DNA from: Alphaproteobacteria bacterium
Lineage (GTDB): Bacteria > Pseudomonadota > Alphaproteobacteria > Rickettsiales > SXRF01
Direction: 5' to 3'
NCBI GenBank assembly: GCA_020049775.1
Contig: JAGVLO010000014.1
Location: 65,945-129,944 of the forward strand
Length of the DNA stretch: 64,000 nucleotides
Part shown: positions 11,476 through 21,572 of the stretch, piece after piece
How positions within the stretch are numbered: the first letter of the stretch is position 1
Layout: each line of letters opens with the position of its first letter
Made by a program: the position numbers and the translations under genes
The notes under the pieces: model-generated
Database searches by the model: none
The model's input: only the letters and a program-made list of their open reading frames with translations
Told to the model about the DNA's origin: nothing

Positions 11476-13035
11476 TTATCGTAATGCACGCAGGCCACCT
11501 TTCTGCTCAGCAGGTGCAATCTGTATAGTACCGCCAAGCTGTGTACCAAGCGCCATATCACGCAATACATTGCGATGGGCAACATTTCCTTCAAAGGCTG
11601 CAATATCGGAAATCACCATTTTTTTCTGGCTATCGATTACTGCCACAGGTTCTGACAGCTGGGCATCTTTGGTAATGGCCAATGTAAAACCGGAAGCAAG
11701 GAATTTTTCCGTGTAAGCCCTGAGCGCCTCCTCCTCATTCATTTGCGGAAACGCACAGTGGCACATTTCAGCAAACGCATGAACATCATGCACATACATC
11801 ATGCTCTTGGCAGCATCAATAGTACCATAATGCGCCGGTGCTTTACCTGCGTGGCGCTCGTAAAGATGCACGGTAATATCGGTTTCACGAAATTGCGGTT
11901 GTGTCAGCAGTAAAAGGCTGTTTGCCGAAGCAGCCGTTGACCAGCCGACATCTGTGGCGCTTGGCGCTCTGCCCCCTGCCTTCCTGCGCACATCAGCCTC
12001 TTTTATCGCTTCTTCTTTTGAGATGGAGATATGATGTGCAACAACTTTTCCCCCGCTGGCAATGCCTTCCAGCACCTCAAACGAACCCAGCACGATACTG
12101 TTGAGTACTACATTCGGGGCCTCGAATTTCTGGCGCGCGAGATAACCACGCTTGCGTGTCCCCTCATACAGCGCATTGGACGATTCCGCCTGCACTTCCG
12201 GCCCGGCATACTGGTGATCCGCAGGTAACATGCCTTCCGCATGGGCGCTTTTGTACAATGCGTATTTCAGATAATCGGCATTATGTAAAACCAGATCCTG
12301 ACGCACGTCATCCGGCAGTTGTTTCAGGTAATGCCTGGTCATTTCACTCTTGCCACTGCCCATGCTACCGATAAATAACGTCATCAGACGGTCACTGGCC
12401 GGATGCATCGTCAGCATTTTTTCCGATGTAAAATTTTGCTGAATATATTCTTCCACCATGCTGCGTCCGATATCACGGTAATGCTTGTATTCAAGATTAC
12501 GCTCGGTCCAGTAGGCTGTCAGGCTACCCGGCGTTTCGCCCTGCCTCGGTGAATAGTCGCCTGTTTCCATGCGGCTGCGAATAGTGCCGTAAGCTTCAAT
12601 GGCTTTTTTCTGCCAGCGCGGTGGATAGTCAATAATGTTCCATGTGTTATTGAAGCGCACAGGGTCCCAGCGTTTTCCAGATTCTACTCTTTCTATCTGT
12701 TCACAGAAGAACCCTGCTTCATTTTGCTTGGCAGCTAGTATAGGTTTTGCCCGCTCCACGCGCCTGCAATATTCATCATGCAATTTCGCATACATGCCAT
12801 CGGCAAGCACAGCTATTTCCTCTGCCCTACCCGCTTCATCCACCTGAGACATCTTTACATAGGTTTGTATCCCGTTAAGGCAGGCGTGATACAGCACACG
12901 CTCCGACGCAAGGGTTGCGGTCGTGACCATCTTGATATCGGAATAGCCGAGCGCATTGCATACCTCTTCCAGATCTTCTTGCCGGAAATGGCTGGAATAG
13001 GTGAGGTCTGTGGAATGCGGAGGTATCGGACGCAT
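11476..13035 (-). CDS. P-loop protein with a zeta-toxin/AvrRxo1-like kinase core (519 aa); last gene of the NAD operon
   Basis: Walker A is LFIGSMGSGKSE (residues 223-230, nt 12346-12369). About 20 residues later comes VLHNADYLKYAL, an Asp-containing strand as in zeta-type kinases. The N- and C-terminal regions (~200 aa each) are unrecognised. The gene starts 5 nt after the radical SAM stop. Confidence 0.4.
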   Translation of the reverse strand: MRPIPPHSTDLTYSSHFRQEDLEEVCNALGYSDIKMVTTATLASERVLYHACLNGIQTYVKMSQVDEAGRAEEIAVLADGMYAKLHDEYCRRVERAKPILAAKQNEAGFFCEQIERVESGKRWDPVRFNNTWNIIDYPPRWQKKAIEAYGTIRSRMETGDYSPRQGETPGSLTAYWTERNLEYKHYRDIGRSMVEEYIQQNFTSEKMLTMHPASDRLMTLFIGSMGSGKSEMTRHYLKQLPDDVRQDLVLHNADYLKYALYKSAHAEGMLPADHQYAGPEVQAESSNALYEGTRKRGYLARQKFEAPNVVLNSIVLGSFEVLEGIASGGKVVAHHISISKEEAIKEADVRRKAGGRAPSATDVGWSTAASANSLLLLTQPQFRETDITVHLYERHAGKAPAHYGTIDAAKSMMYVHDVHAFAEMCHCAFPQMNEEEALRAYTEKFLASGFTLAITKDAQLSEPVAVIDSQKKMVISDIAAFEGNVAHRNVLRDMALGTQLGGTIQIAPAEQKGGLRALR

Positions 13036-13040
13036 GCAGA

Positions 13041-19592: not shown

Positions 19593-19601
19593 ACTGTCTC
19601 C

Positions 19602-21572
19602 TTATTGAATAGCTTGTTTCTTTTCCTGTCCGCCTGCAAGTTGCAGCGTGCCGGAAGATGCCACACCCGGCGCGAATGGCGCATTGCCACCCTCAAAGCG
19701 TTCCGTGTATTCCGCCACACCCTGACGGTTGGAATGCGCAAGATGGCGCTGTTCGCACTCCATACGCTGGTCGAACAGTTTCTGGTCGAGGAATACGGGT
19801 ATATGTTCTACTTCTTGCGGCAGGCTGGCTTTCAGCGCTGCAATGTCGAGCGACAATGTACCCTGACCGCCTTTTTCTGCCGACTTAAAAGCTGCCAGCA
19901 GTTTTTTCTGTAGCACTTCATCACGCGGGCGGGCAACAATACGGGCGCCTTCGGGTAGCATGCCGAGTTGCGCCTTCACAGTTTTTGACATGGCCGCAAG
20001 GTCGGTAACCATTTTGCCGCTGCCGGGGAATGATTCCTTCTGCGCTGGCTCCTGATATACATACTCTCCTTTGGCATTAAACACCGGCACCAGCAGGTCC
20101 TTGCCTTCAGCGGAACTCACACCACTGCGGTTATCCTGAAAATTGCGCAGGTTTACGGCTTTACCTTCTGCATCCAGCCCCAGCGATTCATCATATAAAA
20201 CCACATGCGACAATTTACCGTCTTCGGTATAGAAACGGCGTGAATTGATACGACCCGGATTAGAAGATTTCACAGGAGCATGTGCCGCCACCTTCATCAC
20301 CGGTGTCATGGCTGCGCCTTCCGGCATTTCCTTATCGCCCAATACATCCATATATACGCTGGCAGCTTTGTACACCAGCCCAAGCGGTGCAACATGCGAG
20401 CCGGCAGTACCCACACCCCATGACTTGAAGAACGCACCAGCATCACGCATTTCTTTTGCAGAATGCTCATCGATTCCGTCAGCTGCGGAGCAGAATACAG
20501 TTGCCTTGTTCGCATATTTCAGCAACTCGGTATCATCCATTTTTTGCACATCTTCTTTGCTCAGGCCTTCGACAAAACCTTCCTCGGCAAAACGACGCAG
20601 GGCAATCTTGGAGTATTTTACAATATCGCCGGAATCGAAGCGCACACCATATTGCTTACCCAGCCCCTGTTCGCGCAATTCCTTGATAACCGTAATGGCG
20701 TTTTCCAGCCCCTGCAACGGATCATAGGTATCGACAAGCAGGATGCCGCTTTCCGGATGCGCCATCACAAAGCTGCGGAAGGCGTCTTTCTTGAGTGCCT
20801 GCTGCAATTCAGCGATGTTGCCTTCATCGCGCAGCCTTATCATTTCTGCCAGTGGCACTTCGCCCAGTTCTTTTTCGTGGGTCATCACCCATGCGTGATC
20901 CATAGTTCCTGCAAACACCTGTCCGAACTGCTTGGCGGCAGTGCCGGTAGAGCTGCTGGTATATCCGCCAAGCCCAAGGCTGCGCGAAGCTTCAATAGCT
21001 GCACCAAGGCTGGGGCCGCGGCGCAAGCCCTGTACGCTGGCAGCGCCTTTGGGCGATCCGTTTTCAAGTTCTTTTTCTACCACGTCGCTCTGGCGCGCCG
21101 CATGTGTTGCATAGCCGCTATGGCCATTCACCAAGCCCAGCGCAACAGATTCCAGCATTTTCACCTGCGCTATCGGCCCTTCCACGCGCAACACCGGCTC
21201 CTGCGGGAAAAATACTGCGCCTTCCGGTGCTGCATCTATCTTGAGGTTGAATTGCATGTTCTTAAGGTAATCGATGAATTCATCGGGAAATTGCTGCTTG
21301 CCGCTGGGAGTTTTCTGGGACCTGATGAAAGCAATATCCTGCTCACTGAAGCCATGCTCCTGCCAACGCTTAACAACGTCGATAACACCTTCAAGGCCAG
21401 CTGCCACCGTGTAGCCGCCGTTAAGCGCTTCCTTGCGGCCAAACATATAAAATACTGATGGGTTATCCGCTCGCCCTTCCAGCCAATAGGCATAGGCGGT
21501 GGTAAAATGATACTTGTCCGTCATCAGCGGAGTGGTTTGTTCGACACCGTAATTATCAGCTATAAATCCCAT
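19602..21572 (-). CDS. pncB: Nicotinate phosphoribosyltransferase family protein with a long C-terminal extension (656 aa)
   Basis: MTDKYHFTTAYAYW, AGTMDHAWV, LLVDTYD, GVRFDSGD and WGVGT are NAPRT-family landmarks. It is the first gene of the six-gene minus-strand operon. Confidence 0.8.
   Translation of the reverse strand: MGFIADNYGVEQTTPLMTDKYHFTTAYAYWLEGRADNPSVFYMFGRKEALNGGYTVAAGLEGVIDVVKRWQEHGFSEQDIAFIRSQKTPSGKQQFPDEFIDYLKNMQFNLKIDAAPEGAVFFPQEPVLRVEGPIAQVKMLESVALGLVNGHSGYATHAARQSDVVEKELENGSPKGAASVQGLRRGPSLGAAIEASRSLGLGGYTSSSTGTAAKQFGQVFAGTMDHAWVMTHEKELGEVPLAEMIRLRDEGNIAELQQALKKDAFRSFVMAHPESGILLVDTYDPLQGLENAITVIKELREQGLGKQYGVRFDSGDIVKYSKIALRRFAEEGFVEGLSKEDVQKMDDTELLKYANKATVFCSAADGIDEHSAKEMRDAGAFFKSWGVGTAGSHVAPLGLVYKAASVYMDVLGDKEMPEGAAMTPVMKVAAHAPVKSSNPGRINSRRFYTEDGKLSHVVLYDESLGLDAEGKAVNLRNFQDNRSGVSSAEGKDLLVPVFNAKGEYVYQEPAQKESFPGSGKMVTDLAAMSKTVKAQLGMLPEGARIVARPRDEVLQKKLLAAFKSAEKGGQGTLSLDIAALKASLPQEVEHIPVFLDQKLFDQRMECEQRHLAHSNRQGVAEYTERFEGGNAPFAPGVASSGTLQLAGGQEKKQAIQ

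Follow-up and report, generated by a model that had tools for sequence, protein, structure and literature searches.

Why does an operon that appears to build nicotinamide adenine dinucleotide (NAD) also carry a kinase resembling bacterial toxins and a radical S-adenosylmethionine (SAM) enzyme? The question is raised by a locus of a Rickettsiales bacterium (Alphaproteobacteria; contig JAGVLO010000014.1, positions 65,945 to 129,944, forward strand); the window hereafter denotes this whole stretch of 64,000 nucleotides. The locus is a seven-gene operon that runs from 21572 to 11334 on the minus strand and encodes, in order, a nicotinate phosphoribosyltransferase (NAPRT)-like protein, a nicotinamidase, a conserved 86-residue protein, a trifunctional NadM-glutaminase-NAD synthetase, a radical SAM enzyme (rSAM), a P-loop kinase and a protein of ~51 residues. 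An earlier reading, made from the DNA letters and their translations (the sequence-only reading), had described six minus-strand open reading frames (ORFs) with spacers of 1–9 nt. All six stand where it placed them, with spacers of 9, 1, 5, 9 and 5 nt in gene order, but the seventh gene had been overlooked. The motifs that it quoted, GCPFDCEFC, GSMGSGKS and HNADYLK, are all found in the operon proteins. In at least eight independent loci the genes occur in this same order, with 30–87% identity, and the arrangement is therefore far beyond chance. We tentatively propose, with a probability of about 0.45, that the operon combines a salvage core with NAD-tailoring modules and yields a modified NAD.

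The core is predicted to encode every step from nicotinamide to NAD via deamidated intermediates, with its catalytic motifs intact. The 656-residue protein passes the Pfam threshold for NAPRTase_N (E = 1.7e-25) and matches the type II NAPRT model TIGR01513 with E = 2e-77 and 260.9 bits, under the curated cut-off of 297.4; it is 73% identical to the copy in locus L004 (loci from other genomes are designated by L numbers). The 403-residue nicotinamidase, of the PncA type, matches NF008623 (E = 1.5e-13) and gives a three-block alignment to the Acinetobacter nicotinamidase 2wt9 (E = 8e-13), with which it shares DxxNGF, QDYHPANHISFAANHPG, LWTEHCIQGT, IRKG..DSY and GGLASNFCV. In this alignment, the metal site (QDYHPANHISF; Asp/His/His) and the positions of the Asp-Lys-Cys triad are kept. 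The enzyme carries an insertion of ~110 residues, because of which the Pfam Isochorismatase model is not significant for the window protein.

The 1222-residue protein is composed of a NadM-type adenylyltransferase for nicotinamide or nicotinate mononucleotide (NMN or NaMN; residues ~1–270), a nitrilase-type glutaminase (~285–620) and an NAD synthetase with helical insertions (~640–1050). It matches NAD_synthase and CN_hydrolase in Pfam, and it aligns across both domains with the glutamine-dependent NAD synthetase 3ilv (E = 4.6e-28). The model-level matches of the NadM-like domain are weak (NF003786, E = 1.5e-4; phrog_395, E = 1e-5). Motifs of the HxGH and ISxTxxR nucleotidyltransferase types are present in all eight cluster copies, the first as an invariant GRRxPxHxxH and the second as a conserved NAsDLR with invariant Ala and Arg. 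The Glu-Lys-Cys triad of the glutaminase and the SGGxDS PP-loop are also invariant in these eight copies. All of the core enzymes score under the curated NCBIfam cut-offs. The family assignments of the sequence-only reading (NAPRT, nicotinamidase, NadM with CN-hydrolase and NAD synthase, radical SAM) hold by model or structure matches and motifs, as does its complete nicotinamide-to-NAD route, for which four activities are encoded and the catalytic motifs are conserved. The last two steps could follow either the nicotinate adenine dinucleotide (NaAD) route or a Francisella-type NMN route. Francisella-type salvage runs through NMN (PMC3376133).

As compared to the Preiss-Handler pathway and the pyridine nucleotide cycle (PncA, PncB, NadD/NadM and NadE), all four activities are present in the operon, and cluster variants use PncC or a NAMPT-like enzyme instead, a kind of substitution also seen between different bacteria. 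The operon differs in that it fuses the adenylyltransferase, glutaminase and synthetase into one protein of 1100–1220 residues, and in that it adds an 86-residue protein of unmatched fold and a common C-terminal tag on NAPRT and PncA. We regard the core as a form of Preiss-Handler salvage, and the cassette is neither a phage NAD reconstitution pathway (NARP) nor a PADLOC defence system. The phage pathways NARP1 and NARP2 combine Adps with Namat, or NAMPT with NMNAT; NadV plus NadM-Nudix is counted among the phage pathways as well. These pathways resemble the window operon in being compact, self-contained gene sets for rebuilding NAD, with the NadM-type adenylyltransferase and Nudix relatives in common; however, the operon encodes the deamidated route with an NAD synthetase, lacks Adps and Namat, and lies in a cellular context. 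The analogy to the phage pathways, drawn before, is not supported, as the enzymes differ and neither the core nor the kinase turned up in a phage or viral context.

Among the seven operon proteins, PADLOC returned only a weak, generic match for the rSAM (PDC-M51A, 2.6e-6) and none for the other six, and PHROGs returned generic matches only; with nothing specific from either, a known defence or phage anti-defence module was discarded. The kinase is absent from the PLSDB plasmids, the rSAM from GenBank phage records, and both the kinase and the 86-residue family from IMG/VR. The rSAM matches in IMG/VR lie on six contigs of 11–480 kb, five of them 70–480 kb, that look like genomes of the candidate phyla radiation (CPR) or prophage regions.

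The 86-residue protein had been regarded as an ORFan, but its family has 59 members, ~2.7 times the kinase count. It adjoins the trifunctional enzyme or NAPRT in eight of nine family contexts, the distant member L028 having neither, and is present in every cluster read, so that it marks the cluster type. Five columns of the family are invariant (F44, G59, S64, G65 and G67), covering most of a conserved ESGYG motif. The AlphaFold2 (AF2) model is of moderate confidence, with a predicted local distance difference test (pLDDT) score of 77.6, and Foldseek found no fold match to it in the PDB or BFVD (E > 0.5, TM-scores 0.2–0.3), which ruled out a bacterial microcompartment (BMC) shell protein, a chaperone and an antitoxin.

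The NAPRT ends in ...PGVASSGTLQLAGGQEKKQAIQ, and the nicotinamidase ends in a tag of the same type, ...KPGRSASGGLQLAGGRDRQVAVG. This tag of ~22 residues, with the approximate pattern KPGxxx[ST]GxL[QEK]xxGG[PQ] plus 6–8 residues, is carried by unrelated cluster enzymes. When the window was compared with L002, L004, L009, L010, L011, L012 and L027, the tag was found at the end of NAPRT (or the NAMPT-like enzyme) in every cluster read, and of PncA (or a 148-residue protein) wherever present; there is a weak match on the CinA/PncC protein of L027 and a near match on the IMPase of L011. It is not on the trifunctional enzyme, the 86-residue protein, the rSAM or the kinase, and the kinases and cluster-type rSAMs have conserved C-terminal extensions of their own. 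A loose form of the pattern occurs in two of the 226 stop-to-stop ORFs of at least 80 residues in the window, both in the operon. We compared the tag with encapsulin cargo and BMC encapsulation peptides, double-glycine leaders and ubiquitin-like GG tails; all were rejected, as the clusters contain no shell, peptidase or E1/E2 gene and the registers mismatch. In the simplest reading, we infer a docking tag that gathers NAPRT and nicotinamidase onto the trifunctional enzyme or the 86-residue protein. A peptide common to two unrelated enzymes suggests an assembled salvage complex.

Comparison across genomes, with module associations taken from ~20 loci read, showed which parts of the operon are constant. 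The invariant unit consists of a phosphoribosyltransferase, a deamidase, the 86-residue protein and the trifunctional enzyme. Even within this core, parts are swapped: PncC for PncA, a NAMPT-like enzyme for NAPRT, and sometimes an added phosphoribosyl pyrophosphate (PRPP) synthetase. The contig carrying P0002 is the closest relative (68% identity), with the same flanks and operon and no rSAM. In L002 and L010, the trifunctional gene is separated from that of the kinase by genes for a 750-residue protein and a short-chain dehydrogenase/reductase (SDR) of the epimerase/dehydratase type, and next to the small ORF comes a gene for a Nudix protein or for one with a Nudix-box-like motif, on its downstream side; a PRPP synthetase adjoins in L010. 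In L004 and L006, the 750-residue and SDR genes come after the kinase. L009 has a NAMPT-like enzyme and the 148-residue protein in place of NAPRT and PncA; this 148-residue protein was considered as a PncC homologue and dropped, no similarity being found. L011 encodes a short PncA, an IMPase-family protein, the trifunctional enzyme, the rSAM, the kinase, the small ORF and a Nudix protein, whereas L012 combines the core with the rSAM and tandem Nudix genes and has no kinase. L027 contains only PRPP synthetase, NAPRT, an 87-residue protein, a CinA/PncC-type deamidase and the trifunctional enzyme. The accessory modules elsewhere are NadM/NrtR-type Nudix proteins and a HisN/CysQ/NADP-phosphatase-like enzyme of the IMPase family.

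The 750–764-residue protein (L002, 6746–9001; L004, 11708–13996; L006, 2159–4453; L010, 6801–9047) always occurs with the SDR and fills the slot of the window rSAM. Its four copies are 40–68% identical with many invariant residues, and have no Pfam, NCBIfam or PDB match. The rSAM and this pair never occur together in the loci read (rSAM in three, pair in four, neither in three). The kinase and the rSAM are optional, independently shuffled modules on the salvage core and not fixed parts of it, and the operon belongs to a rare family of horizontally shuffled NAD-salvage cassettes. As a side observation, a ShlB/POTRA transporter for two-partner secretion and a TonB-dependent receptor are encoded at 10815–13966 in L012 (GCA_028872085.1, labelled Patescibacteria); such outer-membrane proteins are not expected in Patescibacteria, and the bin label is thus probably wrong.

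The P-loop protein is, as judged from its predicted fold and from transitive homology, a divergent zeta/AvrRxo1-type kinase. The 519-residue chain is predicted to comprise an N-terminal helical domain, a kinase core with Walker A at residues 223–230, and a C-terminal alpha/beta domain; Asp254 is the candidate catalytic residue. With the AF2 model (pLDDT 90.2, built on 17 family members), Foldseek ranked AvrRxo1 (4z8t/4z8u at the top, E = 1.5e-4), zeta and PezT in places 1–9 against the PDB, with E-values up to 1.4e-3. By sequence, neither the single protein nor the family profile found a match among solved structures. Pfam Zeta_toxin (PF06414) weakly matches five of the 17 family members (best, 7.4e-6) and does not match the window protein. 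A kinase-profile search of 1.84 billion representatives gave 74 proteins, and 24 of the 45 distant relatives scanned belong to Zeta_toxin, with no other family exceeding two. G223, S227, G228 and K229 (GxxGSGKS) and D254 (HNADYLK) are invariant in the 17 sequences, and the Gly, the Gly-Lys pair of Walker A and an Asp at the D254 position are invariant in the 45 distant relatives as well. In zeta and AvrRxo1, the catalytic Asp shortly after Walker A is D67 and D193, respectively. The earlier zeta/AvrRxo1-like call on this protein is therefore backed by both the fold search and the transitive homology to Zeta_toxin.

The likeness to AvrRxo1:Arc1 and to epsilon/zeta (PezAT) extends from the fold, and a Walker A followed ~25 residues later by an Asp, to a small gene downstream and a genomic link to NAD. 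The window kinase differs by an extra N-terminal helical domain of ~200 residues and a C-terminal domain of ~130 residues, and the pair lies in a biosynthetic operon, unlike the two-gene avrRxo1:arc1 module flanked by mobile DNA. The family is small, with 22 proteins among 5.8 billion, one of which is fused to a Nudix domain. Eight of the loci read have the kinase inside an NAD operon, namely the window, L002/3, L004/5, L006 (a truncated contig), L009, L010, L011 and the contig carrying P0002.

The small ORF of ~51 residues overlaps the kinase stop by 14 nt and is translationally coupled to it. ORFs of 48–54 residues with a common pattern overlap the 3' end of the kinase in eight loci (window, L001, L002, L004, L006, L009, L010 and L011). 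In avrRxo1:arc1, the toxin gene likewise lies upstream and the small partner downstream, and Arc1 measures 81–121 residues with the signature KExFD(x25–27)(Y/L)ExxYY (PMC4938570). The window partner, at ~51 residues, differs from Arc1 in size and lacks this motif. By analogy, the small ORF is a candidate partner or inhibitor of the kinase.

The rSAM matches Radical_SAM (E = 4e-16) and has a CxxxCxxC core, whose cysteines C167, C171 and C174 are invariant in 21 sequences. Its N-terminus is Rossmann-like and resembles a B12-binding domain, with only 17.9 bits against the Pfam B12-binding cut-off of 32.1, and the label of a B12-domain protein is accordingly weak. The NCBIfam AprD4 model matches with E = 8e-9, far below the family cut-off, and the family profile matches the AprD4 structure 6fd2 with E = 3.8e-11. 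From these sequence comparisons, the closest characterised relative appears to be the diol dehydratase AprD4, not a methyltransferase. AprD4 is a radical SAM 1,2-diol dehydratase of apramycin biosynthesis that works with the reductase AprD3, and it has been reported as not needing cobalamin. The radical methylation suggested before is hence not the best guess, the enzyme being AprD4-like rather than a B12 methylase. AprD4 gives the best sequence match among solved structures, and the layout of an N-terminal Rossmann-like domain and a CxxxCxxC core is common to it, to class B radical SAM enzymes and to the window enzyme. However, the relationship is distant (E about 1e-9 to 1e-11), the window enzyme has a cluster-specific C-terminal extension, and its context is NAD and ADP-ribose rather than aminoglycoside genes. 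There is no partner reductase in the window; an SDR adjoins the rSAM only in the CPR contig L013.

The rSAM has at least 148 homologues, a lower bound given that only word-sharing candidates were scored; those carrying names are mostly Saccharibacteria or Patescibacteria. NAD or ADP-ribose genes are present in nine of ten contexts of the family: three in the trifunctional cluster (window, L011 and L012), one in CPR (L013/L014) and five with PARP, leaving one without a link to NAD. The CPR context, represented by two contigs, contains NrtR, PncA, a split NAPRT, the rSAM and a 180-residue protein at 5238–9836, and the opposite strand encodes a NadD-like protein and an SDR; the L013 rSAM is 58% identical to the window copy, and its clade is named Saccharibacteria. 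This locus lies between terminase-like, ParB-methylase and serine-recombinase genes and may sit in a mobile element or prophage. In five loci, the rSAM gene directly follows that of a bacterial PARP (WGR, PARP_reg and PARP domains), with a 4-nt overlap in two, and in four of the five Macro and NADAR genes lie downstream. These loci (L015, 6499–13226; L016, L017, L019 and L020) are on contigs flagged viral in IMG/VR, and in some of them a gene for a LAGLIDADG endonuclease, or for a T4 endoV-like pyrimidine-dimer glycosylase, intervenes. No description of the conserved PARP-rSAM-Macro-NADAR neighbourhood was found in the literature searched.

The window rSAM gene has a G+C content (GC) of 0.43 and a third-position value (GC3) of 0.40, as compared to a GC of 0.50–0.53 in its operon neighbours. 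Between the window and L011, the rSAM is 87% identical, the trifunctional enzyme 71% and the kinase 55%. The low GC and this contrast in identity suggest recent, repeated capture into the same slot, and the window rSAM has the look of a recently acquired cassette in a favoured position.

How might these parts work together? In the proposed modified-NAD pathway, the core would provide a high local flux of NAD or of the precursor NaAD, and its assembly may go through the 22-residue C-terminal tag common to NAPRT and nicotinamidase. The kinase would phosphorylate one of the ribose hydroxyls of the dinucleotide made by the core. If it behaves like AvrRxo1, the site would be the adenosine 3'-OH and the product 3'-NADP or the corresponding phosphate of NaAD (3'-NAADP). 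The small partner would restrain the kinase, as Arc1 restrains AvrRxo1. The rSAM would attack a ribose diol, in a nucleotide of the NAD or ADP-ribose type, by radical chemistry that is probably of the dehydration type. The end product would be a tailored NAD derivative that might serve as a signal or antimetabolite, or as a protected pool. The proposal draws on the variable modules, each of which has homologues acting on NAD- or ADP-ribose-type dinucleotides, and the Nudix proteins, the HisN/CysQ/NADP-phosphatase-like enzyme and the kinase-Nudix fusion of the sister clusters fit the turnover of a phosphorylated dinucleotide.

Several observations weigh against this proposal. The likeness of the kinase to AvrRxo1 amounts to 13–15% identity and a TM-score near 0.47, and the window kinase has no significant Pfam or PDB sequence match. 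Zeta toxins act on UDP-GlcNAc, and the window kinase might likewise use a different nucleotide, or a sugar nucleotide, as its substrate. The small ORFs (48–54 residues) are about half the size of Arc1 and lack its motif. The 59 members of the 86-residue family, set against 22 kinases, imply that most core clusters contain neither module. Furthermore, the rSAM is missing from the nearest relative of this locus, L012 has the rSAM with no kinase, and the kinase and small ORF stand alone in two Rickettsiales metagenome-assembled genomes (MAGs); the kinase and the rSAM therefore need not share a pathway.

A more specific form of the proposal, which we consider quite improbable, would let the two modules act in sequence. 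The 3'-phosphate added by the kinase would serve as a leaving group, and hydrogen abstraction by the AprD4/viperin-like rSAM followed by phosphate elimination would give a dehydrated or deoxy NAD analogue of a 'ddh-NAD' type, acting as an antimetabolite or a signal. Processing of this analogue, or protection of the cell that makes it, would fall to the Nudix and CysQ-like enzymes of the sister clusters. In CPR, the same rSAM family would furnish or edit a nucleotide of this kind for use by the PARP-Macro-NADAR systems. If true, this scheme would define a new natural class of NAD derivatives with a dedicated pathway.

The alternative that survives best, though we regard it as doubtful, confines the operon to NAD supply and homeostasis. 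In that case, the kinase would be an unorthodox NAD kinase forming 2'-NADP or a nicotinamide-riboside kinase, the Nudix and IMPase-like enzymes would balance the pools, the rSAM would serve salvage or repair, and the unit would make no new metabolite and uphold NAD in a host-associated bacterium or under NAD-depleting attack. Such a role accords with the complete salvage route of the core, with variants that add PRPP synthetase or PncC, and with the absence of the kinase and the rSAM from most core clusters. Homeostasis is a known task of NadM-Nudix enzymes and of NADP phosphatases of the IMPase family, the PncA-NAPRT-rSAM cluster of the CPR contig L013 is under the control of an NrtR regulator, and the window itself shows features of host association and of a defence island. 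However, neither PADLOC nor PHROGs revealed a signature of defence or of phage anti-defence, and in fold the kinase best matches AvrRxo1 and zeta toxins rather than NadK, NadR or Nrk1. We also know of no salvage role for a radical SAM dehydratase-like enzyme. Moreover, a kinase with an overlapping small partner has the layout of a restrained toxic enzyme (PMC4938570).

That layout leads to a second alternative, in which the kinase and small ORF would form an AvrRxo1:Arc1-like toxin-antitoxin or secreted-effector pair targeting NAD. NAD synthesis would offset self-intoxication, or selection would link the pair to it, and the rSAM would be a separate add-on. The pair does stay together while its position relative to the other modules shifts, it stands alone in the Rickettsiales MAGs, its gene order is that of avrRxo1:arc1 (PMC4938570), and a eukaryote-like ubiquilin-domain protein in the window fits a host-interacting lifestyle. 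We nevertheless judge a toxin pair unlikely: it is embedded with 5-nt spacers in biosynthetic operons (eight loci read) and is in one case fused to Nudix, which looks like metabolic integration; neither a secretion signal nor genes of a secretion system were noticed in its vicinity, and the partner lacks the KExFD...YExxYY motif of Arc1. The last alternative, ordinary salvage with two unrelated passenger genes, is very improbable and was rejected because, despite the closest relative lacking the rSAM and the deviant GC of the rSAM, each of the two genes is accompanied by NAD or ADP-ribose genes at many loci that are independent and divergent (the kinase in the eight loci read, the rSAM in nine of ten contexts), as the neighbourhood check called for by the sequence-only reading has shown.

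The modified-NAD proposal bears on an older question. The nucleotides 3'-NADP and 3'-NAADP were long regarded as synthetic, and the work on AvrRxo1 left their wider biology open (PMC5087710); an AvrRxo1-type kinase in a complete NAD-synthesis operon of non-pathogen lineages makes the 3'-phospho-NAD question directly testable. The analysis also defines a new trifunctional NAD enzyme and its conserved 86-residue partner, and ties an rSAM family of at least 148 members to NAD salvage, PARP, Macro and NADAR genes. Full-text searches, whose coverage did not extend to the NAD-pathway survey of de Souza and Aravind (2012), found no description of the fusion enzyme or of the operon, in agreement with the earlier statement that no described operon of this composition was known, and no paper linking an rSAM to NrtR, PncA or PARP. 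Even if the alternative readings are right, the operon remains of use as a case of a portable NAD-supply cassette from host-associated bacteria.

Table 1. Positions in the window of the operon genes, their upstream region and the genes of the island beside tRNA-Gln.
Feature	Position	Strand	Length or remark
NAPRT-like gene	19602-21572	minus	656 aa
Nicotinamidase gene	18381-19592	minus	403 aa
Conserved small-protein gene	18119-18379	minus	86 aa
Trifunctional NadM-glutaminase-NAD synthetase gene	14445-18113	minus	1222 aa
Radical SAM (rSAM) gene	13041-14435	minus	464 aa
P-loop kinase gene	11476-13035	minus	519 aa
Small ORF	11334-11489	minus	~51 aa; GTG start, AAGGTGG Shine-Dalgarno
Divergent AT-rich intergenic region 5' of first gene	21573-21762	minus	likely operon promoter; AAGGA ribosome-binding site before ATG at 21572
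Tyrosine integrase, tRNA-Gln island	41766-42848
Tyrosine integrase, tRNA-Gln island	44407-45663
Type I restriction-modification hsdR, tRNA-Gln island	38720-41716
Type I restriction-modification hsdS, tRNA-Gln island	37522-38730
Type I restriction-modification hsdM, tRNA-Gln island	34787-36424
AAA_13 ATPase, tRNA-Gln island	36421-37518
Metallophosphatase-nSTAND NTPase, tRNA-Gln island	31471-34590		1039 aa
Helix-turn-helix (HTH) protein, tRNA-Gln island	27342-31082		1246 aa

Upstream of the operon, a sigma-70-like site lies at 21693–21666 on the minus strand, with a score no better than chance expectation, and no riboswitch or regulatory RNA was found there at the Rfam gathering thresholds. The operon is flanked by a LysR/DoxX/pirin/Old Yellow Enzyme group and a PMT_2 glycosyltransferase, which are syntenic in the contig carrying P0002. 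The LysR gene (10414–11331, plus strand) ends 2 nt from the last gene of the operon, tail to tail, and is divergent from the DoxX-pirin-Old Yellow Enzyme trio (7976–10335, minus strand), with which it forms a separate redox-stress unit. It was considered as the operon regulator and, being convergent with the operon and divergent from the trio, was judged unrelated.

The island listed in Table 1, with its integrases, type I restriction-modification system and STAND NTPase, occupies a low-GC (0.41–0.48) stretch at 27342–45864, beside tRNA-Gln (45790–45864) and 6–24 kb from the operon, and looks like a defence island. Three ORFs of the window have no Pfam match (4724–5773, 349 residues; 6069–7979, 636 residues; 25901–27313, 470 residues); in place of the second, the contig carrying P0002 has a syntenic, co-oriented ORF of 637 residues, also with no Pfam match. 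A MipZ ATPase, a marker of Alphaproteobacteria, is encoded at 48960–49925 on the minus strand (E = 4e-107), and the core genome near it has a GC of 0.52–0.58, as compared to 0.43–0.53 in the operon. Finally, a 489-residue protein encoded at 3053–4522 on the minus strand contains eukaryote-type XPC-binding, ubiquilin-1-like (STI1) and DUF5647 domains, which is unusual in bacteria and hints at a host-associated lifestyle or an effector.

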